Shown piece by piece: positions 4,822 through 36,900 of a stretch of 64,000 nucleotides of DNA. The notes beneath the pieces were generated by a model. The model made no database searches and had not been told where the DNA came from. It was given only the letters and a program-made list of their open reading frames with translations. Each line of letters begins with the position of its first letter. Position 1 is the stretch's first letter. The DNA is from Candidatus Omnitrophota bacterium (GTDB lineage: Bacteria > Omnitrophota > Gorgyraeia > Gygaellales > Profunditerraquicolaceae), in the NCBI GenBank assembly GCA_028716965.1, contig JAQUOV010000003.1:5302-69301 (forward strand). Direction: 5' to 3'. Position numbers and translations under genes: made by a program.

Positions 4822-4871
4822 ATTTTCACCTCAAGTTTACAAAACAAATATTATCCAAAATATTCTCCTGT

Positions 4872-12689: not shown

Positions 12690-12728
12690 CTCCCCTTTTG
12701 CTTCTGTCCTTGTAAATAAATTAAACTC

Positions 12729-15033: not shown

Positions 15034-15882
15034 TTATCCTACTATCGCTCCCTGGGTAACGCCTTTGACAATATACTTCTGCATCAACAAATACACTATA
15101 ATAATAGGTAAGGCGGTAATGGTTAAACCTGCCATTAATAACGGATAATTGGTGACAAACTCCCCCTGGAAGGTCTGCAGCGCAACCTGAAGCGGCATAA
15201 ACTGCCGATTATCAAAAATAATCAGGGCTAAAATATATTCGTTCCATACGGTTAAAGCATTAAAAACAATAACTACTGCCAATACCGGTTTAGCCAAAGG
15301 CAAGGCAACATGCCACCAGATCCCCAGCTTTGAGCAACCGTCAATACGCGCGGCATCCTCCAGCTCTTTAGGCATCTTGTCAAAAAAAGTTTTAAGCAGA
15401 AAAATACTCGTGGAAAGACCGACATTAATCATGCACAGTATATAGCCAATGGGGGTATTTCTTAAATGCAGCTTGTTTAATAAAACATAGAGGGCGACGA
15501 AACTTCCCGGGATAGGGATCATCATCGCCGCCATAAACATAATAAATAAACACTTGCTTCCAAAAAAACGCAGGCGGCTGAAAGCATAAGCAGCCATGGA
15601 AGAGATAATTACTATGCCGAATACCACCGAAACAGTATAAATGATGCTGTTCAGGAAGTTCCGGCCAAACCCGCCTTCCTGCCAGGCCCGTAGATAATTT
15701 TCCAGACGGAACTGATGCGGAATCAGGGAGATATCCTTAAAGATCATATCCTGTGTCTTCAAGCTGGATACGATCATCCAAAGCAGAGGATACAAGCAGG
15801 TTATTGCCACGCTGATCAGGAAAAGGTGGATCAACGTATTTACGACTACCTTTTTACTCTTATAATAAAGCGCGTTCTTCAT
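15034..15882 (-). CDS. Carbohydrate ABC transporter permease (MalG/UgpE-like).
   Basis: It has six predicted TM helices and an EAA-like loop (ELEDAARIDGCSKLGIWWHVALP). Confidence 0.85.
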   Translation of the reverse strand: MKNALYYKSKKVVVNTLIHLFLISVAITCLYPLLWMIVSSLKTQDMIFKDISLIPHQFRLENYLRAWQEGGFGRNFLNSIIYTVSVVFGIVIISSMAAYAFSRLRFFGSKCLFIMFMAAMMIPIPGSFVALYVLLNKLHLRNTPIGYILCMINVGLSTSIFLLKTFFDKMPKELEDAARIDGCSKLGIWWHVALPLAKPVLAVVIVFNALTVWNEYILALIIFDNRQFMPLQVALQTFQGEFVTNYPLLMAGLTITALPIIIVYLLMQKYIVKGVTQGAIVG

Positions 15883-15889
15883 CCTAAAG

Positions 15890-16768
15890 TCATTGGTTCC
15901 TCTTTGAAAACCGGTATTGGATAAATGAAATTATCACAAGCACCAGGCCGAAAGTAATCCCTTGCGCGCAGGCATACCCAAAACGCGATGAGCCGCGCAT
16001 GGAGGCCAGGATTCGTAAAACCGGCACTGAGGTATGCCCGGCAAACTCCCCTCCTACAAGGCTGACAATCAAAACGAATACCTGCATTGTACCCAACACC
16101 GTAAGGATAGCCACTAAAATCATTATCGGGATCATCAAAGGTATTGTTATCTTCCTGAATGACTGCCAGGAGCTTGCTCCGTCAACGCGCGCAGCTTCGT
16201 AAAGCTCGCGCGGGATAGTCTGCAGGCCGGCCAGGAAGATCAGGAATCCCCAGCCAAAACCTTTCCAACAATGCACCAAAGCAACGGTAGTAAGGGCCGT
16301 ATTCGGATCAGAAAGCCAATTATGTACTAAATTAGGCATACCAAATCCTGCAAGCATACGGTTAATGATATTGGCCCCGTCAATGTCGTTGATAATGAAG
16401 CGCCAGGCCATGCCTACGACTACCTCTGATAAAACCGGGGGAATAAAGAATATAACCCTGTAAAAATTCTTCATCTTAATTTCGCGGTCGCACGCCCAGG
16501 CAAGCATAAACGCCAGGATATTCTGGAAGGTAAGCGCGATAAGCGTAATATAGATGGCATTGCCCATTGACTGCCACCAGCTTCTATCCTGCAGGAAGAT
16601 CTCCTTAAAATTCTGCAAGCCCACAAATGTCTTGGTAAAAGAAATGCCGTCCCACTCAAAAAGCCCCAACTGGAAGACCCAGATAAAGGGGATAACGTAG
16701 AATATGGCAAAGATAGTTACTGCCGGCAATACAAAGGTATAATTTTCCAGCGATTCTTTTATTTTCAT
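15890..16768 (-). CDS. Carbohydrate ABC transporter permease (MalF/UgpA-like).
   Basis: It is polytopic and carries the EAA motif YEAARVDGASSWQSFRKITIPL. Confidence 0.85.
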   Translation of the reverse strand: MKIKESLENYTFVLPAVTIFAIFYVIPFIWVFQLGLFEWDGISFTKTFVGLQNFKEIFLQDRSWWQSMGNAIYITLIALTFQNILAFMLAWACDREIKMKNFYRVIFFIPPVLSEVVVGMAWRFIINDIDGANIINRMLAGFGMPNLVHNWLSDPNTALTTVALVHCWKGFGWGFLIFLAGLQTIPRELYEAARVDGASSWQSFRKITIPLMIPIMILVAILTVLGTMQVFVLIVSLVGGEFAGHTSVPVLRILASMRGSSRFGYACAQGITFGLVLVIISFIQYRFSKRNQ

Positions 16769-18069
16769 CTTGCTCTTTTCTTGGCTAATTCGCGCTCTTT
16801 GATCTTCTGTACATCATCAGCCACCTGCTCCGGCGTCTTCTCTCCGATGATAATCGACTGGATACCTCTGTCAAAAGCTTCAATTACCAAAGAGAATTCC
16901 GAAACCCCCCAGATATTCGGATGCGTGGCATAATCCATGCCGCGGGCAAACTGCGCTAAGATCTCCGGTATCTTGGATAAACTATTCTTGTTTGCGGGCA
17001 GGTTATTGGTCTCCTGCGCTAAATATGCCTGTTGGTCCTGGTCGGTAAGCCAGGCCAGGAACTTCACTGCTTCTTCTTTATTCTTTGAACGGGCATTAAC
17101 CATAAAAGATGAACCTGCCCCTCCCCAGATAGCCATAGGGTATCTGCTTGATGCTTCCGGAGGGAGCATTGCTCCATACTCCAAATCTGGATTCATCCCT
17201 TTGTAAACATTCACGCACCATGAACCGTTAAAAGCAAAAACAGCTTTTTCGTTTGCAAAAAGCTGTTCAGCGGATTTATTGATCATAGTAACTATGCCTT
17301 TAGCCAATACACCTGACTCCTGCATCTGTTGAAAAAGCGCAAATACCTTAATCCAATCCGGGTCAGTATAAGCAACCTCGCCCCTTATTGTAGCCAATAC
17401 CTTGTCCTTGCCCATTATATTAAAAGCGTAGTTATTCGCCAGGCAATCAATCATCCACACCTCGCCCCAGCCGGAAACCAGCCCCTGCAGCCCGGCAGAG
17501 CTTATTTTATTGCCTATATCCAGAAACTCCTGGAATGTTTTGGGCGGCCGGTTAGGATTTAAACCCAGCTCCTTAAAAAGTTTCTTATTATAGACCATCT
17601 GGATAGTCATAATATCTATGGGCACCCCAAATATCCCCGGGTTGATTCCATAGCTGTTGTCGGAAGAAAATTCATTCACTGCCAAGGCCTTGGGGAAAAA
17701 CTTATTTTCCCAAAGGCTGTTATTAGCTTCCATATAGGAAGTTATATCCAGAATATGCCCGGCTTTAATAAAGGCGGCAAAATCCCTCTTTTCTCCCAAG
17801 ATACCGAAGATATCCGGAAGATTTATTCCCTGCGCCGCGGCGCGGACCTTTTGCGAATAGGCATCTGATGGGGCATAAAGCTCAAAATTTACTCTTATGC
17901 CGGTTAAAGCTTCATATTTTTTGGCTAACTCCTGGAAGGCGGGGTCCCTGTCTGTCATCCAGTGCCAGACGGCAATGGTAGGCTTGGTATCAATCTTTTC
18001 TCCTGAACAACCTAAAACTGAGAATAAGGCAAAAATACACAAAGCTGCGCTTCTCATCAACATCCTCAT
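16765..18069 (-). CDS. Extracellular solute-binding lipoprotein of a sugar ABC transporter.
   Basis: It shows an SBP family 1 pattern. A lipobox (LGCSGEK) follows a hydrophobic leader. The likely true start is the third Met (18061..18063), because the GGAAGGAG Shine-Dalgarno at 18071..18078 abuts the first ATG. Confidence 0.8.
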   Translation of the reverse strand: MRMLMRSAALCIFALFSVLGCSGEKIDTKPTIAVWHWMTDRDPAFQELAKKYEALTGIRVNFELYAPSDAYSQKVRAAAQGINLPDIFGILGEKRDFAAFIKAGHILDITSYMEANNSLWENKFFPKALAVNEFSSDNSYGINPGIFGVPIDIMTIQMVYNKKLFKELGLNPNRPPKTFQEFLDIGNKISSAGLQGLVSGWGEVWMIDCLANNYAFNIMGKDKVLATIRGEVAYTDPDWIKVFALFQQMQESGVLAKGIVTMINKSAEQLFANEKAVFAFNGSWCVNVYKGMNPDLEYGAMLPPEASSRYPMAIWGGAGSSFMVNARSKNKEEAVKFLAWLTDQDQQAYLAQETNNLPANKNSLSKIPEILAQFARGMDYATHPNIWGVSEFSLVIEAFDRGIQSIIIGEKTPEQVADDVQKIKERELAKKRAR

Positions 18070-18126
18070 ACTCCTTCCATTGATCGCGGGGGATTTTCCC
18101 CTGGGGATAGGTTATAAAAAGACGTA

Positions 18127-18143
18127 ATGTTAAAATTTAACAT
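18127..18143. promoter_or_regulatory. Perfect 17-bp palindrome ATGTTAAA-a-TTTAACAT in the 113-nt gap upstream of the ABC operon; a candidate operator.
   Basis: It has 8-nt arms around a single central base, read directly from the sequence. It overlaps a candidate -10, and a TTGACC -35 lies at 18157..18162 on the minus strand. Confidence 0.4.
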
Positions 18144-18182
18144 ATTTTCTCCCCCCGGTCAAGGTTTTTTGTTTAAATCCGG

Positions 18183-18905
18183 TTAAGCCCTGAGCACACG
18201 GGCAATACCCATTAAATCCGCTTTCTCCAGATTTATTCCGCTGTGGTATTTGTTGTCCTCCTGTAATCCTGACCAGACCACCTCGCCTCTTAAATATAGC
18301 GGCTCCCCCTTATCCGGGATTCTTAGCCAGATCTCAAGAGGAGTCTTCGGCTCAAGTTTCTCGTCCGCTTCCAACCTCATACCTTTGGCGCTTAAATCCC
18401 GGGTCCGCGCCTGGCCTTCAGCCCCGGAATAAAGATTTAAAAAACTTAGCCCTAAACGTTTTTCAAACCTTTCGAATATCCTTCGGTCTTCAATCATATC
18501 CCCATCTCCCTTTGGTTGATTAATATCATTATCAATATCTTTCCACCATTGTTTATTAATTTGCTCCTGGAAATTACTACGCATGAATCTATATAACTTT
18601 TCTTTGCAAGGATCGCTGATTTTGGTAAAGTACAGGCCATAGGAGTGGTTTTCCCCAATCGCCTTATGCCAGACAACCCAAGCCTCCAGATTATCCAGGC
18701 TGCAATCCTCAGAGAGGACCAAACTTAACTTTACAGAGCTATCAACCTTGATTTTCTCAGACAGACAAACCCTTAAACCTCTAATAGTTATATCATAAAT
18801 AAGGCAATTAGTAAAGTCTTTCGCTGCATCAGCACCTTCAGCATCAAGCCTTATCTTTGCCTGCCAGTTAGCCCGCCACCTGATTGTCTGCCTATGGTCT
18901 TGCAT
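18183..18905 (-). CDS. Tandem PilZ-domain protein, a putative c-di-GMP receptor.
   Basis: Two RxxxR + D-x-(S/T)-x-x-G pairs are present: RQTIR ... DITIRG, and RRIFER ... DLSAKG. The start codon at 18903..18905 overlaps the giant ORF stop (18892..18894) by 14 nt. Confidence 0.55.
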   Translation of the reverse strand: MQDHRQTIRWRANWQAKIRLDAEGADAAKDFTNCLIYDITIRGLRVCLSEKIKVDSSVKLSLVLSEDCSLDNLEAWVVWHKAIGENHSYGLYFTKISDPCKEKLYRFMRSNFQEQINKQWWKDIDNDINQPKGDGDMIEDRRIFERFEKRLGLSFLNLYSGAEGQARTRDLSAKGMRLEADEKLEPKTPLEIWLRIPDKGEPLYLRGEVVWSGLQEDNKYHSGINLEKADLMGIARVLRA

Positions 18906-21900
18906 ATTTGTACCTCAAGAAATTTCTGATATAGCGGTCATCCAATATATCTAAAGAAAATATTCTTTTACTGCCAAGGTTGCCGCCCACACACGCCCCC
19001 ACTCCCAACAGGGACGTTTCTGAGGTCAATCGGGGGACGTTTCTTGAGCCAATCGGAGAAGTGTCCCCTTCAGCTGCCAGCGGCGAGGCGGATTTTTCAT
19101 TCGTTCTCGGATCGAAACAGGTAGTTAACTTTTCAAGTACTGCTTCCTTAATCTTCTCATTTAGCGAAACGTTATCAAGCGCTTCAAGTATTTCTGCCGC
19201 ATCTCTGGAATTTAAGACTACATGGTTTTCAACCAACGCTGTTAAAAAATCAATAGTCCTGTTGACTGATTGTCTTAAAGCCTTAGCCATATCCTCTTCA
19301 GTAGGATATTTCAGAAGCCTGTTCATATTCAATCCGGAAAGGGAATCAAGGAGGCCGCGGATAACGTCCTGTGCGATAACCGGCTTCTTTAAAACATAGA
19401 AAGGCGTTAAATCCGGAGTTAAGCGATACAGCACCTCCCATCCGGCTTCCTGATAATACCTGCTGGAAAACCTTGGTAAGTGCGCCTGCGTCACAATTAA
19501 ATACCCTCCCGGACGCACCATATGATAAATTTCATCGAGCGCTTTAGTTGCCGCCTCCCAACTCAATACATCCGCGCACAGCACTCCCTCCAACACAACC
19601 AAATCAAATAACCCCTCTTCTAGCTCATCGCTCAACCTTGCAGCATCGGCTTTAATAATACGGCCCTGAGTGATGCCGGCTATCCGGAAATTCTTCCTGG
19701 CAGCCTCAATCATATCCTGATTAATATCCGAGCCGAATACCTTGAGGTTTAACCCATTTTCCCTGGCCATATTATGGATATCCGTCAGCCGTAAACCCAA
19801 AGCGCAAGCCGGGTCTAGAACCTTTATCTCTCTCTTAACTGCAATTTCTTCGGAGAACAGTTCTTTAGCCCAATCGGCAATAAGGAATCCGAGAACACGG
19901 AACTGATAAGACTGAACAATCATATATCCTCTTGCGCCTCTATCCCAAAATGAATTATTGCGCGGCTCTATTGTGTAGGTGCCCCGTGACTCAATTTCAA
20001 TGCCCTTCGTCCGGCGCAAAAGCTCATAAATACCAAACTGGGGCTCAAAAAACTCTGCGTTAATCCTGATTCCCGCCATATCACTTAAGAAACTTCCCGG
20101 GATACCTTCTTCATCTTTATGAAGCACAACCTCCACAATCGCCTGGCCAACTTTTGGCCCTCTAACTCGTACGCTAATAACCGCGTCGGTACGCACCCTA
20201 AGCTGCCCCCGTCGCCCGCTCTTTATAGCCTCCAGAACAAACTCTTCCCATTCTGGACTTTCAGAAGTAAGGTCCTTATCATAATCAGCCGTTACTTCTT
20301 TAACAGCCATTAGCGGACGAATTGCCTTTAAGCGGGATGCCATCTTTTTTTGCTCAACGGCCACCCTTCGTTTTATCGCGCCTCTTCGCTCAGCAGAGAT
20401 AGAAACCACGCAGTCAAAAGCAAGCTGTCTTGTCTGGCCGATGTAATAATTAACATCCCTTTTGCTATTTGAGCCATTAAGCCCGAAACGAAGAGTAGTT
20501 TGCATGCCGTTATCCAGGGAAACAGGGACATAAGCCACGCCCTGAGGCAAAATCCTACCAACTCTGCCCGCTATTGGGACAAGCATGCTGTGATTAATAG
20601 ATACTCTGGAATCCTGCCCCGAAAGAAGCGGCGGACTGGGCAAAGCGCTTGCCATCTTAAGAGCTAATGCGATAAGATTAAGCTTTTCATATCTTATCAG
20701 CGTATCCTCGTTTTGCGGCGCGGGCGATTCTTCGGCGGTCCGCTGCAATAGCGTGTAAGAATCAACTGCGCCCAGTGGCAATTCATTTCCCTGCCGGGAA
20801 GCCAGACATTCTTCCAGACACGTCTTTAGCCACTCCCTAACCTTCTCTACTTCACCAAAATAAGCCGCCTTCTGTAAAATGTCCTCCACCGCGTTTAAGG
20901 GGAATTCTCCAAAAAAGTACCCGCAAAAAGAACCGGCTGTATTCCAAAATAAGAACCCGTTGCTTTCCTCCTCTTTCTTTGTCTGACAAAGAATCCACAG
21001 CAATTCCAGGATTTTGAAATAAACCGAGGTCTTTGTATCCTCAATTTCTCGTAGTTCAGGGTGTTGAATCCAGCTCATACAGGCGCTCTCCCCGGGCCTG
21101 CCCATAGTCGGCACATAAGAAACGCCGGCTTCGCCGATAATGCCTTTGGTTAATCCCCATGAATAATGCCCTCTGTGTTCGTCGGTGATAAAAAGTTTCT
21201 CAACCTCCGGCCGCAGCCTAAACGAAGCTTCTTCAACAAAGAAACTCCTTCCTTTATTGTAAATTTCCTGCATCCCGATATCCTTCAACAAAGTAGTTGC
21301 TTGTACTAGTAAGCCGTCGACTAAAACAGCCTTAAGAATTCCAGGCTGAGTGCTTGCCACGAGATTCCGCTCAAGCGGGGAAGCGCCCGTAGGAGGTAAC
21401 CTTGCCTGCGCCAGTGGCGAGGCAGCATGAACTTTATCTGCCCTTATCATAAAAGTAATAAACTCTACGAATTCTTTATCCCCTATAACCTGGTATTTAA
21501 TAGCCTGTCTTATTTTTTCGCTTGCGTTATTAAATAGTCTATACACTGTATCGAAATCATCATATTCTCTTAGCCATCTCTGTAAATCTAACATGAAATT
21601 ATATGTCCGTGTTTCGGCAATGCAAAAACCTGTTTGTCCTAGAAGATGTTTCAGACCCGACATTGAATAGAACTTAAAATCTGTCGGCTGTCTTATCCTG
21701 CTCATTTTATTAAAAAATTCATCTACCTCTTGGTCTTCATAAGATAAAACGTCTAACAGTATCAAGCTGGCTCCTATCTTTAATGCCCTGTTTACATTAC
21801 TAAGCGCTTTTTTTGCAAACTCAAAATGATGGAGAGAATAGCGCATAACAGCAAAATCAAAATATGATTCAAAATAGAGGCCAAGTTCGTAGGCGTTCAT

Positions 21901-24900
21901 TATTCTAAGCTTTATCCTATTATCTTCCCCAAGAAGTTCTCTGCCTTTACCAATAGCTGGCTCAGAAATATCCGTACATAATAATTCCTGGAATTCCATT
22001 TTTGGAAGAATTCTTTGCCAAACTAAACCCATTCCAGATCCTACATCAATACCATTGCCATTTAGAGATAATGTGGATATCCATTTTTCATGGGCCCTGA
22101 TTACTTCTGTATGAAAATTATGGGCGCCCTTCCGCAGGTAATGTCCTAAATCACGCCTGGTATGCATGTATCTGTCTATGCCATCCAACGGCGATGCGCT
22201 AAAAGAAGGTTCCGATGACAAAGAAGCATGCTCTATGGTCTTTACTAATTCCCTGAATGGCAGACGCAAACTAAAGCGTTTAATTCTTAAAAATTCCCAT
22301 GTTTCAACGGATAATTCCTTTACCCTTTCCGATGTACTAGTAATAAAAATGGGAGGTACGATTACGCCTGATCTCTGCCTGTATTCCAGTTTCTTGATTA
22401 AGGATATTCCGTCCATTACCGGCATTTCTAAATCCATAAAAATAACGTGTATTTTTTCATTATCAATTATCTCCAGCGCTTCTTTTCCGTTATAAGCACA
22501 AAATATTCTATATTTACCGGGATACAGGAACTCAAATACTGGTTCCATCCGATCTATAAAACATGCTATATCATTGACAAATAGTATAGACTTCTTTTCA
22601 GCCTGCGCCAGCGGCGAGGCGCAGTTAGAACGCAAAGGAGAACCGCTTATTGCTCCATTTATGGCTTGATGTTTACGATAGAGTATGAAGATTGACCACA
22701 ATATTAGATATGCGGCTTGCCACTCTCTTATCGTCTCTTTCAGGGTTCTCTTATTCGACTCTAATAATGGACGATAATTCTCTTCAAAATCTTTTATCCC
22801 CCTATAAAACCCTTGCGGAAGCCATCTGCCGAAAATATGGTAAATAGCAAATTGCCTGGAGTCATCATTGAGTAGTATCAACTGCTCCAAAGTAAAATCT
22901 TCCCCGGCTGTCGCAGGCCGCATATATTTATACTTAAGCGTCCTTCGTGCAAGCGCTATTTTCTGCTCATCGTTTAGATTTTCTATTTTCTTGCGCATCG
23001 AAGTCAACGGCTCATAATCAATGGTCAAGAATATCCGCATCGCCGCCTGCATTTGTCTCAGCCATTTTGGTTCATAATACAATTTCTTAAGAAGCTTCTG
23101 CATCCCCTCTCCCCTAAGCAAGATTTTAACTCGTTTACCGGAGGTCAAAGACCGGTTTGCCACTAACGGAGAGGCGGCCGGCAGTTTATCACTTACCTTG
23201 CCCTCTCCAGCTACTTTTAAAACAGATGTTCTTACCCTGTTGGAATAGTAGCGAAAATCTACGGACTCAAGCGTGAACAAACCTGCTGAATTATATAATC
23301 TCTCTGACGGATGCTCGTCAAAAGGATCCTGGATTATAATAATTCCATTTCCATTCAGGAATAAAGACATATTCCGCAGAGCTGCGATTTTATCCTGCTC
23401 GCTGATTGAATAAGTATCTGAACCATCACCAGCGTCTAACCGCCCAAACAAAAAGATGGCGATCACCAAATCGTATTTACTATTTGCGATTCGCGCGGGA
23501 AATGAGTTAATACCCAGAATATTTGCTTTATATATTTTTGTTTCTAAGTCGGCGGCTGAAATATCAATGGCCTCGGCTTCAATACCCCATGATTGCAAAT
23601 TCCTTAACAGTTTATCGTGATACGAACCAACTTCTAATGCATGAATTCCCGGCCTTGAGCCCAGCCATTTACTGATTGCCCGATATACCGGGATAAGCTT
23701 CATATTCCAGAATTCCGGAAATCTGCTAAATCTCTCTGCATTCAGCAATATTTCTCCATCAGAATTAAATCTTACCAATTGACGATTAGCATCAGCATTA
23801 TTCCTAAGGAGGTTCACATTTTTATCCAGCGGCGAGGCGCCATCTTTGCTTCGCTTGACCTCATCACCTAGAAACTTCTTCTTGATCAAAACAAGTTGTT
23901 CAGGTAACCACTTATCGAAACTGCTAGTCAAATAAACTCTTTTGTGTCCTATTAATGCTTTGTTATTTTCTACGCCTAACTGGTCAAAGATTACCATAAT
24001 GCTTTCCCTCACCATATTCAGAGTAACGCTATCTAAACCAAAAATGGTAACTTTTAATATTAGGCGCCCCTCATTAGTTAGAGGTGGTTGAAAAATCGAT
24101 AGCCTTAATAATTTACCAAAATTTGAACCCATATCATTGGTTAATTTGACTTTATCCTTCGGACGGTGTTTAAATGCAATGTTCATTGTAAAACTTTTAG
24201 GAAGGTAAAAGAAACGAACAATATCATCGACTCCTTTTGCAATAAAACGCGATGCCCCTGCGTGAATACCCAACGGATCCATTAATTTCACCTCGAAAGA
24301 ATCAGAATATTTTTGCGCCAGCGGCGAGGCGCATAATACAGGACGAACCTGAAAAGTAAACAACCGTTCCTCAATCAGACTGTATTTTATTTTCTTCGGC
24401 ATATCTTTAACTCTATCGCTCAAATCAGCCAGTTTTCCCGAACTAATTATCCTGCTGCGCAAAGCGCCGAATCCTTCATTAGAACAACTTAAGAATAAAC
24501 CGCGATCATTAATGAATTTTTCTGGATCACCCCAGTAATATTGCACAGAAAGATATCCTTTTAACCAGGAAATAGGAACCATCATCATATAATCAAGTTG
24601 CGAGTCAGTGTTTATTCTCCTGAGCTTTGCTTCTTGTAAAATGATTGCATTAATAACCCCGGCGTTTTCGCAAGAGTGATCTTTGAACGGGAATATATCG
24701 TTAACATGAATATTTATGGCTCTGTCAAATCCAGCGAATTGGATAGCCCTAAAGGCAGATGCGCTCTTTGCTTCTTTTACACCCTGTAATCTCAACAGTT
24801 CGATAAAACTGTTTACCAATGCTTGCTTTGGCATTACTTCGGTAATAATATCTATATCTTTTATATGAACCAGCTTCACAGCCCTATTGATATCGGCCAA

Positions 24901-27900
24901 ATAACGCGCACTACCTACTATCAATCCTTTTCCCCCTAATAGATATTCAAGATTATCAACTTTTAGCCAACTTTCTCCTTTTCTATTAAGAATCAGCGGC
25001 GAGCCGGCGGATTTTTTTTCAGCCGGCCTGCTTTTTCTTTCTATTTGCGCGAATGCGCACGCGCTGCTATCAAGATCATTGTGAACGGCAGTTAAGCTAA
25101 GCTTCCATTGCTTCAATACTACGCGTAATCCCCGCATTCTCAGCCACTCTCTGGGCATACGGATAACAGCTTTGCCTTTAGCATCAAGATATTTCCCAAT
25201 AATAGAAACGCTGCGGAGCATAATCCGGAATCCGCCTTCTTCTCCCCATTTATTACAAGCCCAGCCGAATGGAGGGTCTGCAAAGATTTTATTAAATACC
25301 TCTCTCCCCAGCTTCCTTTGGACCCCCCGCCGTTCGGTTACGTCTTGCTGAAAAATCCATATTCCGCACTTAACTTCCGGCCTAATAACTTCCGGATAAT
25401 ATCTAAACATGTGGAAAAATAACCTCTGGTTATCTGAAGCATGGAAAGCGGTGCCCGGATTAATATCTAGACCTACAACTTCTGAACCGTATAACGTAAA
25501 GAGCATGCTAACATAACCCCTGCCGACGCCTAACTCAAGGACTTTATCATTAGGCCCAACCCGCAACAGATTATTAACGATATAACTGATATTCTGGGCA
25601 GAGAGCAATTTTACATCATTCTCCATTTGGATGCCTCTATCTGTATTAAAGGCAGGCGCAGGCAGGTCTCTATATAACTCCGGGAAGGTTGGTATTGTTA
25701 ATCTCTTACCGGCGGACTCTGATAATATATAGCCTCCGGGAAGATTAATAAATAATTCTGGATGCAATGATTCATACGGAATGACATGCAATGCGGAATT
25801 ATGGCACGGCATAAGGTCTTCCTGAAAACGGATACCCGGGCGATATCTTATATAATATTCTCCTAAGGGGTTCGGACCCATGCCTGAACCAATCGCGGAC
25901 AACCTATTGCCGTTGAAGGATAGCCCTTCCTCCAAATTATCTCCCAATTGTTTATTTAATAGATTAAGGAGGTTCGTGTTGCCTTGAACCTGGTGAACAG
26001 TACCTGATGGAAAAAGGCATTTCAACTCGTATCCTGCAATAGTTATCTTTCCCGTATCTATAAAATTCTGCCCGCCCTGATTACTGACAAGTTCTCCCCT
26101 TAATGAGACCATAATGCCCTTCTGCCTAAGCTCTTCTCTAGTAAAACCGATGATCCTGTCAAGCCTGGACTTTAACTCTTCCAGCCCTCTCCCGCGCGCA
26201 TTAAACATAATTCTAAACATATTCCCGGAGATATATTCAGCTGTCCCGATAAAATCCTCGGAAATGCTTTTAAGCGTTTCATGAATATGCTTTCTATTAA
26301 AATAAGCGGCGGGGCTGCCTATGTGTATATCCGCTGATACATACGAATCTGCTAAGCGGCTGTTCAATATGCGATAAAGCAATGCCAGAAGCCTTGCATT
26401 GTCCTGCCGGGTTAGGCCTGAATTAAAGATAAATCTTATGCCTCGTAGATCTTCCTCTATGCAAGCAAGCCCTCCGTAACGGCTGAAGACGTTCCTTGTT
26501 TCTTCGTAAGCACGCCCAAGAATAAAATTAGCGAAGGCCGGCCCATACCGCTGATGCATATCGCTTAATCCGCCTATACAAATAATCCCCATTACTGCGT
26601 GTTCGTCACTGCAAAAAACAGCCGTTTGCCCTCTAAGGACACCTGCCGGCAGGATTCTTTCCGACAATAAATACGTATCCTGTTTAGAACCTCGCACAAT
26701 ACCTAAACCCTTTTCATTCATATAACCTGCGATTGCCTCAACTATGCAAGGATCTGACAAATCCAAGCTATCTGTACCTGCGGGGTTAGGAAACTTTTCG
26801 AATGCACGCTTTATCAATAACCACCTGCTATACTGACGCGAAAAATCTATAATCATAGGTTCAGTTTTATCTTTACTGCCAAGCGGCGAGGCAGTATTAT
26901 AACTTACTGCTTCTGACTTTTGCATATAGGCTTTTGAACAAGCTGAACTGCCGACAGCGACTGCTAACCCCTCCAGACGATCTCTGCTTATGAAAATCTT
27001 CATATGGCAAACCAATTCTTCCCATTGAACCTCTTCGCGCAGTATTTCTAAAACATCATGCCAATAAATAATTTTCTCAAGCATCATTTTTATAAACTGT
27101 CGCGCCTCATTATCTACTCTAACTTTGCCTCCAAAAAATTCCAAAAGGGCTTTTTCATCTTCATCCTGTACACAACCCTCCCTTGTGCGTAATTCTAGAT
27201 TCCGGAAGATCCATCTGATACTCCCGCGCTCATCTAATTTTTCTAACAGCAGATCAACCATCTTCTTGACTCTTAGCATTTCGGACAAATCTTTCATAGC
27301 TGCATTTAAATTAGCCGGTTGTTTTTCTATTCTAATTTTAAAATGTTCCCTTATATATGCAAGCGAATGCTCGGTCCACATTAAATCCACCTGGATAATA
27401 CCGGATTTTAACCCAAGGCCTAAAGACGGATACTGGATATTCAGAGGATCTTCACTGCAAAAACGCGATAGCTCTTTGCGATAGTTATTCCAGATTTCAT
27501 CAAATACCTGCATAAAAGTTTTATGCGAGTCTTTCTGCTCTGGTGGTTCAGGAGGTATCACGACAGGAGATTGTTCCTCCATTTCGCGTGAGAATATATT
27601 AAGATTTACATATAGAGCTCCCAATGATTCAAGGATTGCTTCTAAAATTAGCGCCTCTGAGCCGGAAAGCGCAGTATTATGGGTTTCTCGTAATACAGCT
27701 TGCAGCCTGCTACATTCTTCCAGCAAGCTTCTTGCTCTTGTGTAATCATCCCACTGCTGTAAACCTGCGCGGGACTGCTCATCCCGGATAGCCTTAATCA
27801 GATTCCCGGTTTTTTTAGTTGCTTTGATTTCCTGCGCCGCCAACGCCTCCCTGGCGTCATCTAAAATGGCAAAAAATGCATTTACACGGGACTGAAAACG

Positions 27901-30900
27901 CATGTAATTTATAAAACTATTCATCTGCTCCTTAACTGCTTTAAGCACGCTTAGATGAAACTCCAGATCCTTGGCAACCGCAGTTATATTCTTCACAGGC
28001 ACTGTTAATATCTCCAGCCTGGCTTTGGAAAGCGGCAACTGCAGTTTCCCCTGAGCGCTTTTTAATTTATCATCGGCTTTCTGCAAATCCATTAAATAAC
28101 TTTTGGTAGTAAATTTATCGACAAATAAAAACCTGAGCCACTCATTCCGTATTAAGCTATGGATTTCTAACACTGCGCTCATCAATGGATGCCTTTTTGT
28201 CCCGCAAGCTTTAAATACCACATCTTTTAACCGTGCGCATATCTGTTCTAGCAGGCTTGCAGTCAATTTTAATTTATTATTAATATCTCTGTTCTCTTTT
28301 TTGGCATCATTAAGAATTTGACCGCAACCAGAAGATACCGGTGGAGAGGAAGCAAAAAGGATATGACCAACCCCATCTTCACATGATCTGCGAACAAGTG
28401 GATAAAAACCAATGGGATGCAAAATCGGCGAGGCGATGGTATTATTTACGGGAAAAATAGAACAGGAGAGCTGAAAAAGCACGGCACCAGAAACAAAATC
28501 AACGAATTTCCTTGCATCCCTGGGAAAGAAATTCGGTTTATAATCATATACTGAAAAGATGCTCATTCCTATACTATGCGCCCGATACTTATTCTGAATA
28601 AGCATGCAAGAATGAGGAAAAACCAAACTATCTATGCAATCTAAATTCCTGCCATTAACGCAGATAGAAAAATCATCCGTGATGAAAACGATAAAATCTA
28701 CGGAGCTATCTTTAAGGAGCAAATGATCAAAAATTAAACGCATAAAATAAAATATATCTAAATTACCAGCGTCCGAGAGATTTATAAATCCTTGGGCGAC
28801 TGCAGTTTTTAACTGCGCATTAGGGGTTAAATAATGCATCTTTGTCTTAAAAATACTAAGCTCTTGACTAGCCTTTTCATTTATCGCTCCGGCAATATCA
28901 TAGCGGTGCCGCGCAAGCATGCCAACGCTGTCTATGCTTGAAATAACAATTGCCAGATTAGCGGGTTGAGAATTCATTCCAAAGCCGGCTCGGCAATAAT
29001 TCTTCTCGGCAGGGCTACTTGTGCCATTTGAAGTTGCAAATAGTCCATTCACTAAGCCTGTTCGCCTAAGCGGCGAGGAGCTGCGTTGATCAGTGCATTT
29101 TGGATTTGTAACTATTTTCTTACTTTGACGCCTCTTACGCTCATCTCTCCACAATAATAGCAAGCTAAGAATAGGAACCAATATAAAAAGTGGGATAACA
29201 ATATAAGAAAAAGGTGTTTTCTTAAGAAAAACGCATAATCTTTCAGTACCTTTAGAAAAATCATTTAACCAAGCCAATAAACAAATCCCATCAACCATGC
29301 CTAATATAGCTCCGAGAATTATGAACCAGGCTTTAATTGACCAAAACTGATCATTCTCAACGTCAGGTTCTTTGGCTTTATCCGCCAGCGGAGATGAGGA
29401 ATCAGGATTATTACTTTTATTGGTTATTGGTTTAATCTCTGACAAATACGGTTTAAATCCATTTATTTTCTCCAGCATATTATCCAAAAGCATGCGCATA
29501 TTTTGAAGCCCGACGCGTAAACTTGGATAGGCGTAAAGCGCATCCCGCATCCGCTCCACAGAAATGAGATAATTCTGGATCCTCTCTTCCAGCCTCCCTA
29601 TTTCAGCTGATACTTTTTCTTTGGGACGCGGCCACTCTGCCCAATACCCTTCATCAACCTTACGGAAATCGATCTCCAGGGATTCAAAGTTTTCAATAAT
29701 CTTTCGTATATCTATATTGATAAGGGAATGGAGTTCGGCGATATTGTCTTCAATCTCCCTGGTTGCTTCCAGAATTCCTGCTTTTTTTTCTCCGGCATCC
29801 AAAGATCCTGATATCTCCCTCAAAAATTCTGCGCCTTTCTTCAGCACGTCAGAAAAAGAAGGGAACCCCGTGATATCCGGTTTACAATCCTGGCGAAGTA
29901 AATCAAGTAACTGGCTGACACGCTTATCAATTATGAAACTATGCGGCAAGACAATTGAGGTAACAGAGGGTAAACCATTTTTCTGCGTGATACCAATAGG
30001 AATATCTCTTACCAAAATGCCATTTAATTCCCTGCTTGTCCGGTGGTGCTCCAGATATTGCTCTACCGGTATAATTTCTATGCCCTCGTTAACTGTGTTT
30101 ATTCTTTTTTCAGCTAAAGCAGTCAAAGGAAGAGGATCAAGCCCAAGAGCAATAATAAAAAGTGGAACCTTCTGATATTTACGGTAACAATCCAGGGACA
30201 GGCGAGAGATCTCCTTTAATTCCAGCGAAATCTCCTCTAAAGAAGCTGTGCCCGCATCGCTGCCGAGGATAATGTTGATGCTTAGCGACAATCCTAAACC
30301 AAGGATTCTCTTAATAAGATCTTGTGTTACCTTGATATATTGATCTCCGGACTGTGTCTTACCCAAGTGTTCTGCCTGAGAAGGAACAAATGTTTCCACG
30401 CCCACTGTCACTATCTTTATTCCGGCTCCTGCCATTAGCTTCAGCAGCTCTTCATCCGCAGGAGAAACAACCCTAAATTGGCAAATAAACGATACTCTTT
30501 CATTTAGTGCCAGTCTTTTTATTTCATCACATAGTTTTTCTATCCATTCCCTATCCTGGATAAAGACATCATCGGCAAAATCTATCTTTCTTACCCCATG
30601 CTCAATAGCCTGCTGGCAGATTTGCGCTACCCTTTCAGGGCTAATCCTGCGTCCGCCGCTATATGGAATCTGTATTGCGCAAAAGCCGCATTTCCCCGGG
30701 CAACCACGCTGGGCATATAGAGAAACAGACTTAAATCCCGCTTTTTTAAAAATATCCCAAGGGTAATTTATAAGGCTGTCCAATTCTCCTGAAAGCGGCC
30801 GGCAATGAAAATATCGCTGAAGCCTTTCCCCGGCGTCCATGCCCCCTGCTCCCTGTTTTCTGATCAAAACCTCTCCACTTTCCTTCTTCAGGAAGATCCC

Positions 30901-33900
30901 TTCAATAGGAATGGCGATTTGCAGTTCTTCTTCGCCTTCAACTAATTTCCGCACAAAAATAGTGTTGATTATATTATCTGCCTGCGTTTCTGTAATAGGG
31001 CTTTTATAAAGATTCCCTCCTAACATTACTTTCAGGTAATCATATTGAGGATTAATAAGCTGATAAATGTTTTTAAAAGGAACAACCATTCCTTCCGGGG
31101 AATCCTTTCTGCGTAAATGTCTTAAAACCAAAGGCAAGGTTATCTCTGTTTCCCCTTCCAGGATTATGTCTACCGCAGGATGATTTATCAACTTCTCGGA
31201 ATATGGCCGAAGCCCCTGCCCCCCCAACATGACCACGGCGCAAGGATCAGTGGATTTGACTTCTATAGCAACCTGTAAAATAAAAGGTAAGGTATAATAA
31301 AGAGTGGATAGGCCGATAACGTCATATTTTTCTTTCTGAACCGCCTTTAATAACTTATCCTTATGGACAATCAGCTCGACTTCAAATCCCGTTTCTTTTG
31401 CTAACTGCAAAAGCGGCAACAAACCAGGAGAATCCTGGCTGGGAGTAAAATCATACGGCAGGTAAAATAAGAATTTTCGTAGCAAAGGATCGGAATGATT
31501 GATGCAAGAGGAGCTCCCCTGACAATATCTTTTAGCCAGCTGAGCGCAAAGATTTTGATATACGCTACCCGTTATACGGCTGGCTAATGCTGCACGCACA
31601 TGCCTTACCTGGGGATAATACATTAGTTCATTTAAATCAAATGAAGATAATGCCTTAAAAAAATTATCCATACGCTCATAATCCGTACTTGCCTGTATTT
31701 TTTGCAACAAAGCCTTAAAATATCTTTTACGCGGCTTACTCATCTTTTCAAGAATAAGCCAGCTTCTAAAATTATCGGCGATTATTTCAGGGTCGTATTG
31801 CTGAATCTCTTCAAGAATACCTCTGTAAACTTGGATCAATTCATCTATAGCCTGCCAGTATTTGCCTGCCAACTCTAAACCTCTGGCATCCAGGAACTTC
31901 TTAAGAACAGGCTTAATATCTTCTATTCGGTTGAGCTTGCTCTGTACGTAGAAATAAGACCGCGGAGAAAGCATGGCTGAGATCCAATCAGCAATGTTTA
32001 AAGCTAGAGTTTGTTCATATAAAACCGGATTACCGTAAAGCTGGAGGGGATTATGATGAGCTAAGATCATCTCAATTTCATCGTTACTTAAAGATATGCC
32101 CCATTCATCGCAAAGCACTATGCTGCCAAAAGGATGTTTTGCTTTTATCTTTTCGTAGTCATCTTCTGACAAATCAGAAGGATAATTAACCAGCGGCAAC
32201 AGCATGAATTTACCTAAATCATGCAGCAGGCCGCACCTCCTCATAGATTCAACAACTTCATCATTAAACCCCAGCAGCCGGGAAAGGATTGCGGCAAGTT
32301 CCGAAACCTGGTAAACGTGGGCAATATTTTCTTGGGAGCCGAAAGGAGGAGCCCGGGCAATAATAATTTCTTTTATCCGGGCAAGGGCTAATGAACCGGA
32401 AACCCGATTATTGATAAAACTGGCGCTTGATTCAACTGAACCAAATATAATATTAGAAACCGTTTGTCTATCTATAAGCCTGGGCTTGCCGGATAACTTA
32501 AAGCTAATTGAATTCGAGGCGGCATTGCCTAACGGTACCAGCGGAGAAGCGCCTTTCTTTTTGGTAATTTTCGAGTCCATGAATTTCCGTATAGGCGGAA
32601 CCTGCCTGTTTTCGGCTATTTCTTCAAACAAATCGAGAGCGCGCTGAAACATAATATCCGTCATTTTCTCTAAAACCAAAAATGCCCTGGATAATTCAAG
32701 TAGATAAATTTCCACTCTCTCCGCATAATTATTCCATTCCTCACGTATTTCTTCATAATCACCTGAAGAAAGCTCGATATAACCCAACAGCTTTTTATCT
32801 ATTTCATGCGGGAAAAGCCATTCATCTTCCCATCGAAAAGCATTGGGATACATCCAATCCTTTCTAGTTGTATCTGTTTTAATAAATAAAATAACCGGCA
32901 AATATCCTAAATCTCTTTCACTGGCGTTAAAAGGGTCGTCCATTTGTTTTATCCCATAGCAAACCCTGGTCTTTATATCCTGCCTTAACACCTCCATAAA
33001 TTTCTCTGCACTAATGTTCCTTACATCTTCATTTAATAACGCTACGTTTCCATAGAAATATCTTGATTCCATTACCGAAAGGAAAGTCTGGTAAGACAGA
33101 CCATGCAGGCCTATGTCAGGCAGTAATCTGATTAACCGTTGCGCCCTATTCGGGTCTTTCCAAGCATCCAGCGCAGAGGAGGCGCGATTTCTGCCATCCT
33201 TGCTGTGAAGAGCTAGCGATGGCCTGATAAGCTCTTTAACTACTTTTAGGCACACAGCATCATCATCCAGTAATCCCGGTAACTCTTGTATATAAACAGT
33301 TAAAACCATCTCCTTTGAAGCGCCCAAAGCATTTAGTTCTCTAACCATAAACAAGCGAAGGGATTCTTTGTCAAAAAATTTTCTTAGGCCGTCCAAATAA
33401 AGGGCGATAATCCCTTCTTTCGACAGCAATCCTTTTAGGTTCTGTAAAGCCAGCGTTAAAATCCTGAAATCCCGGCTACGGGCCCTATACAACCACCAGC
33501 TTTTTGGGAATAATTTATACCAGATAATAAAATACAGGCAGGCGCAGAAACAACTAATTCCAGCCAGGTCAAAAATGGCTAAGAATACAGGTGATGAGCT
33601 TCCATGGGTTGAGCCGGTAACTACATAAAGATTTCGTCGAGCAAAAAGCGAGTTATTATTAAGCTTCTCCCACTCATAAAGGCTGCTCACCCGATCCTCA
33701 ACTTCCTGGCTACAGTATTTTCTAAAACTTATTTTCTTTACATCAGAAAAAATCTCATTTTTTATCAAAAACTTCGTTACAGCGTCATCAAAAATAGAAC
33801 TCTCCTCAAATATAGACAAAATCTTGCTTAGGATCTCCTTTACCTGTTCCAGGTATTCTTCGGATAATGGCAGTGAGTAAAGATAAAGCGGCGGTTCATT

Positions 33901-36900
33901 AATCAAATATTTATTGAATTTAATTGAAAGATAAAGCGTTAGCTGGTAAATAAAGTTCGGCGAGCTGTATTGCCTGTTTATTCGCTTCAAAATTTCGCAT
34001 ATATTCGAAAGATAGTAAGCTAACGGCTGGGCCTCTAAATCTCCCCATATGCTTAAGGGGATAAAATTAAAGAAAGAACATAAATTATTATGCAACAACC
34101 ATATGAATTGGCTATCCTGCGTTAACCTTTCCTCCAAATCTGTGTCAGAGTAGTCCCTTAATTCTTTAATAAACTTGATAGTGGCATGCCTCTTTAAATT
34201 CAATCTTCTGTCTGTCCTGATATCTATTATTTGGGCATTATTTTGAACCTGAATCGGTGAAGAGCCTTTCTTCCGGATAACTGGATCCGCCACCAGCGGA
34301 GAGGCGATTATCTTATTATTGGTCTCGGATAACAACCCTGATAGCCATTTAAGATCCAGAACTTTCATCGGCCCGGTAAGGGGGAAACTAAATTCTTCGC
34401 TGGGTAGCTTTTTAAACTCAAGAACCATCATTATCAACCTGATTGTCTTTTGCAACCTTTCCAGGGCAGCTCCTATATCTTCGTCATTAAACTCAATCTT
34501 GCTTTTTGAATACAGAAGCAAATTCCCGAGTTGCGCCAATATATCTATCTCTTTGAAAATATCCCCTAAGGCTCCTGCGCGAGTAAAAGTAGTAAAAATA
34601 AGCTTTATCTTACTTATTTTGCTGTTTACGGCTGTTTCAACGCAAGCCTGGATCTCCATGGCTAACTGCAGTAACATGCCATTCAAATTATCAGGGATGC
34701 TGCCTTGGCCTATTCTATCTAATATTTCTCTACAAATGTTTATCCAGCCCTCCATAATATCTCTTCTCACAGGCACATCGGCAGGTCCCCTGATACCGTC
34801 GCATTCAAACGGTGAAGAGGCAGGCTGATCAATACGTTCAAGCTCTTGCAGCCTCTGTTCATACTTCCCGGATTGACTATAGATCCCTGTTTCAATGATA
34901 AATGTATTTACTGCAGCGGGCAGCAGTTCGCCGACAGATTGCCCATTCCCAATCATTTCTTTAATATCAGTGGATGATATTTCGGCTTCATAGCGCGGCA
35001 ACCTGAATGGATAGGAACGCATTCTTCTGTTGAATTTGATATTTCTCTGATATTCAGGAGTTTTATCAATCATTTCCCCTCTCCTGTCCATTACTAAGAA
35101 ACAGTTTTCCTTAAAAAGCTGGGTGAGTTCTTTGTTAGAATGCTCATTTAATGTTGCCTGCATAGAATCTTTTCCAACAATAAAATAGGTTTTTATTTTT
35201 TGCCCGTAAACTTCCCGATAATATCTTCTTACCCCTTCTCCAATCTGCGAATACAAACCCCTATTAGCAATGAAGATCTTATCCGGCACCAATAACCCAT
35301 TATTCTGCGCGTTGTCAAAAGCAGTTTGAAGAGTCAAAATTCTATCCTCCGGAGACATCCCATTCATTTGTTTTCTTATGTGCTTTGTCCCTATTATGAC
35401 AATAACCTCATCTAAATATTTATTTTTGGACAACTCAAGTATCCTGGCTTGTTTTATTAATTTAAAATGGGCCAGATGAAACGGATTTGCGGTGAAAGCG
35501 CATATTCCTATTCTAAGAGACCTATTTTGTTTTTCTTCGGTAGGTTTGTATTCTTTGACTGGGATTACTGCGGGTTCATTGAGAGCGTTAACCTGGCTGA
35601 CCTTTTTACGTACATCTTGCCAGGCAAGCACACAATTCTCTGCCTCCCATTTATTCTCTGATAATATTATCTTAATAAACTCATCCCAATCCTGGTTATC
35701 CAAAGCTTTGGCTGACTTAATCATATCTTCAAAGAATTTAAACCCTGCAGCATCATCTTTAATCCTTTCCATCGTGTTCCAACGCAGGAGCCAAAGGAAC
35801 TGATGCGTAAATCTTACGCGCAGCATTTCAGGAATTGCCCTGATTTCCTGTTCACTTAACGGATAGCCGAAATTCTCCGCGGCTTTTTGATAATCAAGCA
35901 CCCATTCGATAAGCTCTTGCATATTAAATTCCTGGCCGTCTTTATTCAAATCAAAGAAAAGACTGCGCACTATATCGTAAATCCTCGCTTCTTCCCTGGC
36001 TATCTCCCAGTCAAAAACCCTCCTTACGCGCTCCTTTAAGAAGCTTACATTATCAGGCCTAAAATCACCGTGTATCACTGCCCTTGGCAGTCTTTCATAT
36101 AGCCCGGCCATTACCTCTTTAATAATCCCGATCTGTTCTTTAAAATAAGGGTAATTATCCAAGAACAATTTTTCTGCCCCGTCCAATTCCTCACGGACTT
36201 TCCCGGATAATTCCTGAAACGCGGTATCTAACTTCTTTTCGCGGGCATCCACCCCTTCAAAAGTAACAATCGGGTCAGTAATCCTTTCACCCTGTATTGC
36301 TTTAAAGCGCTTATCTATGGTAAAACAGTGCAGTTTCGCCAGGAATGCTGCCGCGCTCCTCATCATTTCAGGCGTTAATTCATCATTAGAGTAAATTCTT
36401 CCCTGTTCGTCATATTTATGAACGGTGAAAATATTGTCTTCTTCCCGGTAAAGGACGGTTTCTTCTTTTGTATACATAATTTCCGGTATCTCAATAAGCT
36501 CATCCTTGCTGAATAAACAATCAAAGCATTCATTTTCCCAAATACTTCCTTTTAAATCCCATACTGATTTCTTGATCACAACTCTACCGGCATTCTTCGT
36601 TTTCGCGATTGCCACCACTGTTGCCAAACCGCGGTACTCGATTATTTCTTCGTCAATAAGCTCTAACCCGTAAGCTCGGGCAATGTCCCTTATCTCCGCG
36701 AGGGTAATTTTTAACTGCGAGTCACGGCTAATGGCGAGCTCCCTTATCTTCTTTAATTCCGTAAGGCTATCCGGCAATTGCCGGTAAATATCAGTAGCCC
36801 TTAACCCCTGGCCTTTTTGTTTTTCCGCTAAATCACCCGCATAACCATGTAAATACGCCCCTAAAACAGCAGCTTCAAAAGGAAGCAAGCCCTGGCCAAG

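Follow-up and report, generated by a model that had tools for sequence, protein, structure and literature searches.

The window analysed here is a 64-kb stretch of DNA from a Candidatus Omnitrophota metagenome-assembled genome (MAG). Its features, in window coordinates, are as follows.

18892..63948, minus strand: giant ORF of at least 15,018 aa, read from the ORF list, its translation and Pfam matches as a multi-enzyme Omnitrophota giant gene
31972..32325, minus strand: HD-superfamily phosphohydrolase domain in the giant ORF, residues ~10542-10659 (PF01966, E 4e-6)
25018..26814, minus strand: conserved module of ~600 aa in the giant ORF, in which a linker connects the RYGG domain to a class I SAM methyltransferase (VLELGVGRG ... 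DPPFGW)
26137..26625, minus strand: the RYGG domain of that module, an orphan family with a predicted ferredoxin-like alpha/beta fold (motifs RYGG, SGL and RGR)
22318..22587, minus strand: receiver (REC) domain in the giant ORF, residues ~13788-13877 (PF00072, E 1.8e-12)
18892..18916, minus strand: gene junction, by direct reading, with GAGG at 18916..18913, the PilZ ATG at 18905..18903 and the giant-ORF TAG at 18894..18892
18183..18905, minus strand: tandem-PilZ gene, 240 aa (PF07238, E 3e-20, two stretches)
16765..18069, minus strand: sugar-type solute-binding protein (Pfam)
15890..16768, minus strand: ABC permease (Pfam)
15034..15882, minus strand: ABC permease (Pfam)
12729..15032, minus strand: GH2-like hydrolase (Pfam)

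Since the giant ORF runs without a stop codon up to the window edge, it is longer than 15,018 aa. Its Pfam matches include HAD, aldose epimerase, trypsin-like peptidase, GH77, PRK, MFS_1, several methyltransferases, Carb_kinase, APH, cytidylyltransferase, HD, B12-binding, radical SAM and REC, and its product would be a mosaic of dozens of enzyme modules without mutual relation. The combination of a giant multi-domain ORF (with methyltransferases, radical SAM, peptidase, glycoside hydrolase and REC), pilZ directly downstream, and then genes for a binding-protein-dependent transporter and a glycosyl hydrolase, all in an Omnitrophota genome, is shared with the giant-gene loci of this phylum, which carry 'Archaeovorin'-type or multi-enzyme giants (West-Roberts et al., 2023, bioRxiv 10.1101/2023.11.21.568195; also bioRxiv 10.64898/2026.06.07.730766). 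The stretch is thus most simply read as the 3′ end of such a locus; the N-terminal features of the giants (C39/S8 peptidase, SecA-like domains) and the T2SS-like locus that West-Roberts et al. described as conserved upstream of giant genes lie outside this window. The same authors reported pilZ downstream of Omnitrophota giant genes, raised the c-di-GMP idea, noted GGDEF domains in many giant proteins and suggested an interaction between PilZ and GGDEF. Both the pairing of giant gene and pilZ and the c-di-GMP idea are therefore already published.

The PilZ protein scored 72.9 bits against PF07238 (cut-off 22.5), bearing out the family assignment of the initial annotation, and is 100% identical to the NCBI entry 'MAG: PilZ domain-containing protein [Candidatus Omnitrophica bacterium]'. 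That annotation had also described two PilZ domains with intact motifs. This holds for RxxxR in both domains and for the C-terminal DxSxxG, as the C-terminal domain (R142xxxR146, D170-L-S-A-K-G175) is fully canonical, but the N-terminal domain (R5xxxR9, D38-I-T-I-R-G43) has Thr for Ser. Among 117 homologues, R142, R146 and G175 in the C-terminal domain and R5, R9 and G43 in the N-terminal domain are invariant (117/117 each), while D170 is kept in 112 and S172 in 114. Because the Ser position of the N-terminal motif varies among these homologues (N, S or T), the c-di-GMP binding predicted for this domain is uncertain. Canonical PilZ receptors of the two-domain YcgR type (PF07238) likewise have two PilZ-type domains; their RxxxR and D/N-x-S-x-x-G motifs recur in the C-terminal domain and, as RxxxR ... 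D-I-x-x-x-G, in the N-terminal one, and JGI names some homologues of the window protein 'YcgR'. However, the N-terminal half matches PilZ itself and no separate YcgR N-terminal family, and the genomic partner is a giant gene instead of flagellar or cellulose genes. No related solved structure was detectable by sequence, and a search for contigs encoding this PilZ sequence or protein P0014 found no record. Going by its motifs, the protein is a probable c-di-GMP receptor, which most likely binds c-di-GMP and would relay the signal by protein-protein contact.

The start of the PilZ gene overlaps the end of the giant ORF by 14 nt, as initially annotated, with GAGG 7 nt upstream of the ATG. The layout of the junction fits the co-transcription that had been proposed and makes coupled translation possible. 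No terminator-like site occurs on the minus strand across 17800..19400, and promoter and terminator scans around the junction remained at chance level. The PilZ gene would thus be on the giant gene's transcript, with its own Shine-Dalgarno sequence and a start 14 nt before the giant stop. With a common transcript and such a start, the PilZ and giant proteins would be made together, and the ribosomes at the junction would probably be coupled or re-initiating. Not every locus has the overlap, as the gap between giant gene and PilZ is 44 nt in the relative L004 and 20-190 nt in many GTDB loci (tblastn coordinates); strict translational coupling is therefore no conserved requirement.

The pairing itself recurs throughout the phylum. 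Of 51 GTDB species-level loci with at least 3 kb of upstream sequence, 46 have a very long ORF that ends no more than 3 kb before PilZ: in 31 loci an ORF of at least 900 aa, most of them running off the locus, ends within 200 nt, and in a further 15 such an ORF ends within 3 kb. Gene calls were available for six contigs (L001-L005 and an ENA contig; five of them at least 118 kb), where the gene directly before PilZ encodes 1,858 (truncated by the contig), 6,713, 25,381, 26,400, 40,116 and 47,719 aa. In all six, PilZ is followed by genes for a solute-binding protein and two permeases, the first of which lies 113-160 nt from PilZ in the window and its relatives, and a GH2-like gene comes next where contig and Pfam records reach (the L002 contig ends inside the gene at this position, and the L004 gene there has no Pfam match on record). 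The expectation that a PilZ gene lies downstream of giant genes in relatives is thus confirmed, and the lack of synteny that would have spoken against it was not seen.

PilZ is conserved, with 37-79% identity across the phylum and 77% to L001, whereas the C-terminal thousands of residues of the giant protein cannot be aligned even with the closest relative. BLASTP and phmmer comparison of its last 3,400 aa with the L001-L005 C-termini yielded nothing beyond ~50 terminal residues (36% identity), only three short modules are common to it and 33 giant C-termini, and a scan of genome contigs with the last 718 aa found no relative. Since PilZ is conserved and the giant protein hypervariable, the HD, 'GGDEF-like' and REC domains of this giant protein are less likely to be the target of PilZ than some conserved component of the locus. 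We infer that PilZ probably acts on such a component; candidates are the machinery for export or secretion, some conserved portion of the giant protein, and the adjacent sugar importer.

The initial annotation had instead seen a c-di-GMP module in which degenerate GGDEF and HD-GYP sensors, a REC domain and the PilZ partner control the activity or localisation of the mega-protein. The HD domain offers this proposal some support. It scored 27.5 bits against PF01966 (cut-off 22, Pfam), and its best PDB matches, the sole ones by sequence, are HD-GYP phosphodiesterases (4mcw, E 9.9e-5, and 5z7c, a 3′3′-cGAMP phosphodiesterase). The L005 giant gene has a genuine HD_5 domain ~200 aa from its end (83.5 bits by the same tool); the window domain also aligns to this one, sharing E, H, HD, HH and D with it, and the tail of the window domain, IADWISAMLSPRSY, resembles the xxDxxDAxxxxRxY tail of the HD-GYP family. 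Thus the HD fold, the HHNPLQLYGNP motif and the nearest solved relatives agree with the HD-GYP-like domain that had been described, but the HD-GYP model itself (HD_5, PF13487) gave no match, and the matches obtained were to the generic HD and HDOD models only. Where HD-GYP phosphodiesterases have HHExxDGxGYP, the window domain has HHNxxQLxGNP, keeping only HH, the last Gly and Pro, and HHNPLQLYG aligns with HHEKLDGTG of 5z7c. Membership in HD-GYP is therefore suggested by nearest-neighbour similarity only.

A degenerate c-di-GMP sensor is nonetheless a poor description of this domain. The residues that we take, from published HD-GYP structures, to be the metal-ligand set (E, H, HD, H, HH, D) are kept at all aligned positions relative to 4mcw, 5z7c and the L005 HD_5 domain, the mid-domain His being one residue off in the 4mcw alignment. 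These intact ligands count against the module, and, judged by its residues, the domain resembles a phosphohydrolase that may be active more than it does a degenerate sensor. It would be an HD-GYP-related phosphohydrolase with intact metal ligands and an altered GYP loop.

The 'GGDEF-like' stretch fared worse. The GGLAC letters on which the proposed fold (26359..26781) was based are present, but the region matched no Pfam family, PF00990 included, at E ≤ 10, nothing relevant in NCBIfam, and no GGDEF chain in the PDB at E ≤ 10 by either single-sequence or family-profile search. At the GG(D/E)EF site, homologues read GGLAH, GGIGY and GGTAE; the DEF motif is absent from every member of the RYGG family, and so is the I-site, since the RxxD position is occupied by ETRN in the window and by EIQD in homologues. 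What speaks for a GGDEF relationship is that RYGG, together with the distance between it and an upstream YG, recalls RxGGDEF and that the secondary-structure order of the domain (b-a-a-b-b-a-b) fits a palm domain. Searches for homologous proteins came up empty for the GGLAC segment as well as for alignment A1. AF2 gave a pLDDT of 41 for the GGLAC region as a single sequence and 74 for the RYGG domain from a 4-sequence alignment; Foldseek against the PDB gave only low-TM matches (~0.2), and a GGDEF/class III cyclase fold was not the best structural match.

The domain has a different and consistent partner, as it is joined to a methyltransferase in all homologues, which again argues against the module. 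The full-length homologues P0121, P0122 and P0123 match at E 1e-107, 9e-81 and 2e-43; Pfam gave weak methyltransferase and UPF0020 matches, with weak UPF0020 for homologue P0122, and the family profile matches RNA methyltransferases in the PDB, including aTrm11 5e71. The order of domains, alpha/beta at the N-terminus and then a Rossmann methyltransferase with DPPFGW, is also that of RNA methyltransferases of the UPF0020, RlmL and Trm11 type, which have a ferredoxin-like/THUMP N-terminus and (D/N)PP(F/Y). As modelled, the 'GGDEF-like' stretch is thus a ferredoxin-like domain at the N-terminus of a methyltransferase module of the DPPFGW type; very divergent GGDEF/palm ancestry may underlie it. 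THUMP/NFLD identity was considered for the RYGG domain and rejected: as no THUMP model or structure matched, the likeness is kept as an architectural analogy only.

The receiver domain that had been annotated at 22234..22590 is well founded. It scored 47.8 bits against PF00072 (cut-off 30.2) and matches 62 PDB response regulators at E ≤ 1e-3 (best E 2.5e-10), with its phospho-acceptor Asp (IFMDLEMP) aligned to theirs and ND as the acidic pair. The C-terminal Lys region is divergent, and the match to the 111-position model ends at position 87. By its sequence, this would be an ordinary receiver.

These domains do not form the c-di-GMP signalling cluster that had been proposed. About 1,900 residues separate the HD from the RYGG domain and ~1,400 the RYGG domain from REC, with unrelated enzyme domains between, and all three were missing from the C-terminal ~3 kaa of 33 other PilZ-linked giant genes. 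In RpfG, REC is adjacent to the HD-GYP domain, whereas here it is 3,100 aa away. When the giant ORF was compared with itself, the GGLAC, HD and REC segments had no paralogue in it, except for one short HD-motif match near aa 6,700. Pfam detected no GGDEF domain in the visible 15,018 aa, and no diguanylate cyclase was seen within the 64-kb window. The HD domain, the 'GGDEF-like' stretch and REC would then be three modules independent of each other.

The model that we favour, and consider reasonably probable, is that the window holds the 3′ end of a giant gene whose co-made tandem-PilZ protein acts on a conserved target, with three independent modules inside the giant protein. That the putative PilZ receptor links c-di-GMP to the giant protein is plausible. 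We consider it unlikely that PilZ controls the neighbouring genes for the carbohydrate ABC importer and the glycoside hydrolase and not the giant protein, adjacency to the giant gene reflecting shared operon expression only. The invariant order of PilZ, solute-binding protein and permeases, with the GH2-like gene beyond, fits this alternative, as does the conservation of the transporter genes, which resembles that of PilZ and not that of the giant gene. Against it, the cluster encodes no ATPase subunit detectable with Pfam, the usual regulatory target, and PilZ overlaps or abuts the giant gene while standing apart from the solute-binding-protein gene. We know of no precedent for PilZ control of this transporter class.

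Similarly improbable is that PilZ acts on type II secretion or type IV pilus-like machinery and gates export of the giant protein, in the manner of PilZ-PilB and MshE-type ATPase control. The founding PilZ protein is required for type IV pilus assembly, and one relative has an MshEN/T2SSE ATPase gene ~10 kb downstream of PilZ; the conserved upstream T2SS-like locus (West-Roberts et al., 2023) points the same way. However, the link is indirect, and this window contains no secretion genes over the 18 kb that follow PilZ. Somewhat more doubtful is a bolder version, in which PilZ is a dedicated, phylum-wide partner of giant proteins whose synthesis is tied by the stop/start overlap to finished translation of a 45-140-kb ORF, licensing c-di-GMP-dependent export or activation, and in which, separately, the RYGG domain is an extremely diverged palm/GGDEF ligand sensor of the methyltransferase. 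A c-di-GMP module of degenerate sensors, REC and PilZ is very unlikely on the evidence above, even with GGDEF domains in many other giant proteins (West-Roberts et al., 2023).

The giant genes of Omnitrophota specify the largest proteins predicted so far. What our analysis adds is a quantification of the pairing of giant gene and PilZ over species-level genomes and a corrected annotation of one internal module, which appears to be no GGDEF protein but a methyltransferase whose N-terminal domain is ferredoxin-like. It also adds the contrast between a conserved PilZ and a hypervariable giant protein, which argues against recognition of lineage-specific internal domains by PilZ. The conserved gene at the giant-gene 3′ end for a predicted c-di-GMP receptor, already described, is one of the few handles on how these proteins may be regulated.

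The giant ORF runs uninterrupted on the minus strand from 63948 down to 18892 (ORF list and translation), encoding 15,018 aa. Since its frame is open at the window edge, the giant gene is longer than this. The product of the tandem-PilZ gene directly downstream is 100% identical to the NCBI entry 'MAG: PilZ domain-containing protein [Candidatus Omnitrophica bacterium]', located on a 222-kb contig. Thus, the window contains an Omnitrophota giant-gene locus. Pfam searches revealed that unrelated enzyme domains tile the giant ORF.

Principal features, followed by Pfam domains of the giant ORF (all minus strand)
18892..63948, minus strand: giant ORF
18183..18905, minus strand: tandem-PilZ gene, 240 aa
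HAD, aldose epimerase, trypsin-like peptidase and GH77
PRK; an MFS_1 membrane segment
SAM methyltransferases, at least five
DIT1_PvcA, NAD(P)HX dehydratase, APH and cytidylyltransferase
HD; B12-binding plus radical SAM; a receiver domain

The embedded MFS_1 transporter segment (region ~48900..57450, minus strand) is a clear match. The same region contains weak matches to RelA_SpoT, ACT and HD_4 (giant-ORF aa ~2168-2255, 4585-4650, 4700-4857 and 5007-5192), all of them domains of the (p)ppGpp type, though dispersed and in an unusual order. As a crude hydropathy scan detected no membrane helix past about aa 11,600, the last 3,400 residues of the giant protein probably lie on one side of the membrane. 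Because SAM enzymes and a receiver domain (REC) are present, this side is presumably the cytoplasm.

The initial annotation proposed that this locus is a c-di-GMP cluster, in which a translationally coupled PilZ gene accompanies degenerate GGDEF, HD-GYP-like and receiver domains inside the giant ORF. The PilZ start overlaps the giant-ORF stop by 14 nt, as described: the PilZ ATG (18905..18903) lies within the giant ORF, which ends with TAG at 18894..18892. GAGG is present 7 nt upstream of the ATG, and we found no terminator-like site around the junction on the minus strand. PF07238 matched the 240-aa product in two stretches (E 3e-20), establishing that the PilZ domains are real. Counting over 117 full-length homologues, we observed directly that the binding motifs are conserved. 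The C-terminal domain is canonical (R142, R146 and G175 in 117/117, D170 in 112/117, S172 in 114/117). The motifs of the N-terminal domain, also called intact, are nearly so (R5, R9 and G43 in 117/117, D38 in 109/117), with a variable Ser position that is N in 54 homologues, S in 42 and T in 17; the window protein has T.

Synteny between PilZ and giant genes was likewise observed directly. We compared six contigs on which genes had been called; five are at least 118 kb long, and all carry PilZ homologues at 45-77% identity. In these contigs, the gene directly before PilZ encodes 1,858 (contig-truncated), 6,713, 47,719, 40,116, 25,381 and 26,400 aa, with junctions that overlap by 14, 14, 8, 4 and 4 nt or, once, leave a gap of 44 nt. 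In the window, PilZ is followed by genes for a sugar-type solute-binding protein, two ABC permeases and a GH2-like hydrolase, with TPR proteins, ROK, LacI, ribonucleotide reductase and MnmG also downstream. The solute-binding protein and two permeases follow PilZ in all six contigs, and the GH2-like gene is next in four. Scanning GTDB (one genome per species) with a PilZ alignment yielded 135 relatives, of which we kept 80, almost all from Omnitrophota MAGs or TPA MAGs labelled 'uncultured Planctomycetales'. Upstream DNA of 3 kb or more was available at 51 loci. At 31 of these, an ORF no shorter than 900 aa ends at most 200 nt from PilZ (nearly all run off the fetched DNA), and 15 more have one within 3 kb. 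The other five mostly contain ORFs still running off the locus start. The check proposed in the initial annotation, synteny of PilZ in relatives, therefore comes out clearly in its favour.

At one GTDB locus (L038:10001-11044), an extra single-domain pilZ gene of 118 aa lies in the gap that separates the giant gene from tandem-pilZ. A similar extended match of ~1,040 nt in about 20 of the 80 loci suggests that this two-gene arrangement is common. An ENA contig (ERZ1426844) carries a gene for an MshEN/T2SSE secretion ATPase ~10.5 kb downstream of its pilZ. MshEN domains bind c-di-GMP, and this gene suggests that giant-gene loci may have a second c-di-GMP input.

We examined the proposed GGDEF domain. 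The letters GGLAC are present, and the region matched no Pfam family at E <= 10, nothing relevant in NCBIfam, no PDB sequence and nothing in a 5.8-billion-protein index. Searching 1.84 billion representatives exhaustively with phmmer, we recovered three true homologues (P0121, P0122 and P0123, of 593, 683 and 2,571 aa), which share RYGG, I-x-F-x-x-SGL and RGR with the window. None of this family has a DEF motif, ETRN or EIQD stands where an I-site would have RxxD, and a four-sequence profile retrieved no GGDEF chain from PDB at E <= 10. A GGDEF domain is thus supported by none of these methods. Homology instead spans about 600 residues (aa ~12378-12976; E 1e-107 to 2e-43), and takes in a class I SAM methyltransferase that bears the motifs VLELGVGRG and DPPFGW. 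Pfam methyltransferase and UPF0020 matches are weak, as are those of the profile to its closest solved relatives, RNA methyltransferases. AlphaFold2 gave a usable model of the GGDEF-like region with the four-sequence alignment (pLDDT 74.4 overall, >80 in the core) and a poor one from the single sequence (pLDDT 41). The conserved module (25018..26814, minus strand) comprises a ferredoxin-like 'RYGG' domain lacking Pfam annotation, a linker and the DPPFGW-type methyltransferase.

The receiver domain is real, matching PF00072 (E 1.8e-12) and 62 PDB response regulators at E <= 1e-3, with the Asp of IFMDLEMP aligned to their acceptor Asp. The HD domain is also real (27.5 bits to the generic HD model, cut-off 22; HDOD weak), although the HD-GYP model HD_5 did not match in Pfam. 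Its only PDB sequence matches were 4mcw (E 9.9e-5), the Persephonella HD-GYP phosphodiesterase, and 5z7c, named as a 3'3'-cGAMP-specific phosphodiesterase, in which HHEKLDGTG aligns with HHNPLQLYG. A bona fide HD_5 domain (E 1.8e-23) occurs in a different giant gene, that of L005; when the HD domain is aligned to it, the positions E, H, HD, HH and D correspond, with IADWISAMLSPRSY matching VVDVFDALTQKRSY. The domain is therefore HD-GYP-related, with an apparently intact metal site and an altered GYP loop. It is at least as probable that it is a potentially active phosphohydrolase as that it is a 'degenerate sensor'. A second short match (~43700..43830, minus strand; aa ~6710-6750), with 34% identity to the HD segment over 41 aa, hints at another diverged HD domain.

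The internal domains do not behave as a cluster. HD (aa ~10,540), RYGG (~12,440) and REC (~13,790) are about 1,900 and 1,400 residues apart, with B12/radical-SAM and other modules between them. We compared 33 other PilZ-linked giant genes over their final ~3,000 aa and found no counterpart of any of the three and no GG[DE]EF motif; the full HHExxDGxGYP signature occurs only in L005, and an isolated GxGYP in L050. By this comparison, the three are independent, lineage-specific modules rather than a conserved signalling unit.

Against the corresponding parts of the giant genes in L001-L005, the last 3,400 aa gave a single BLASTP or phmmer match: in L001, the PilZ of which is 77% identical, some 50 terminal residues align with 36% identity. 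Only three short modules are shared with the 33 giant C-termini. The conservation of PilZ beside a hypervariable giant protein argues that PilZ recognises something conserved, not particular internal domains. Its target could be the secretion machinery, the importer, or a region of the giant protein that is conserved and lies beyond the window.

Comparison of the window with L001, L003-L005 and 29 GTDB loci shows that giant proteins are hypervariable mosaics, with C-terminal ~3 kaa unalignable despite 77% PilZ identity. Modules common to lineages are isolated and ~190-600 aa long (e.g., aa 10258-10446, shared with L065 and L073). Embedded at other giant 3' ends are a DnaJ domain (L003:3-10001), a GerE/LuxR HTH with sigma-70 region 4 (L004:1-9954), and HTH_3 with numerous TPRs (L005:3-10001), where a true HD-GYP (HD_5) domain also lies about 200 aa short of the C-terminus.

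West-Roberts et al. (bioRxiv 10.1101/2023.11.21.568195, Fig. 7C) have already published the giant gene-PilZ association and the c-di-GMP hypothesis; beyond PilZ they place solute-binding proteins, transporters and glycosyl hydrolases. A study of complete Omnitrophota genomes (bioRxiv 10.64898/2026.06.07.730766) describes a 'multi-enzyme metabolic' giant class with the same flanks, leaving PilZ unmentioned. Of the initial reading, PilZ as a conserved partner holds, while the internal cluster does not. Most likely, PilZ is an adaptor that would bind c-di-GMP, be co-expressed with the giant gene, possibly through translational coupling, and act on a component of the locus that is conserved.
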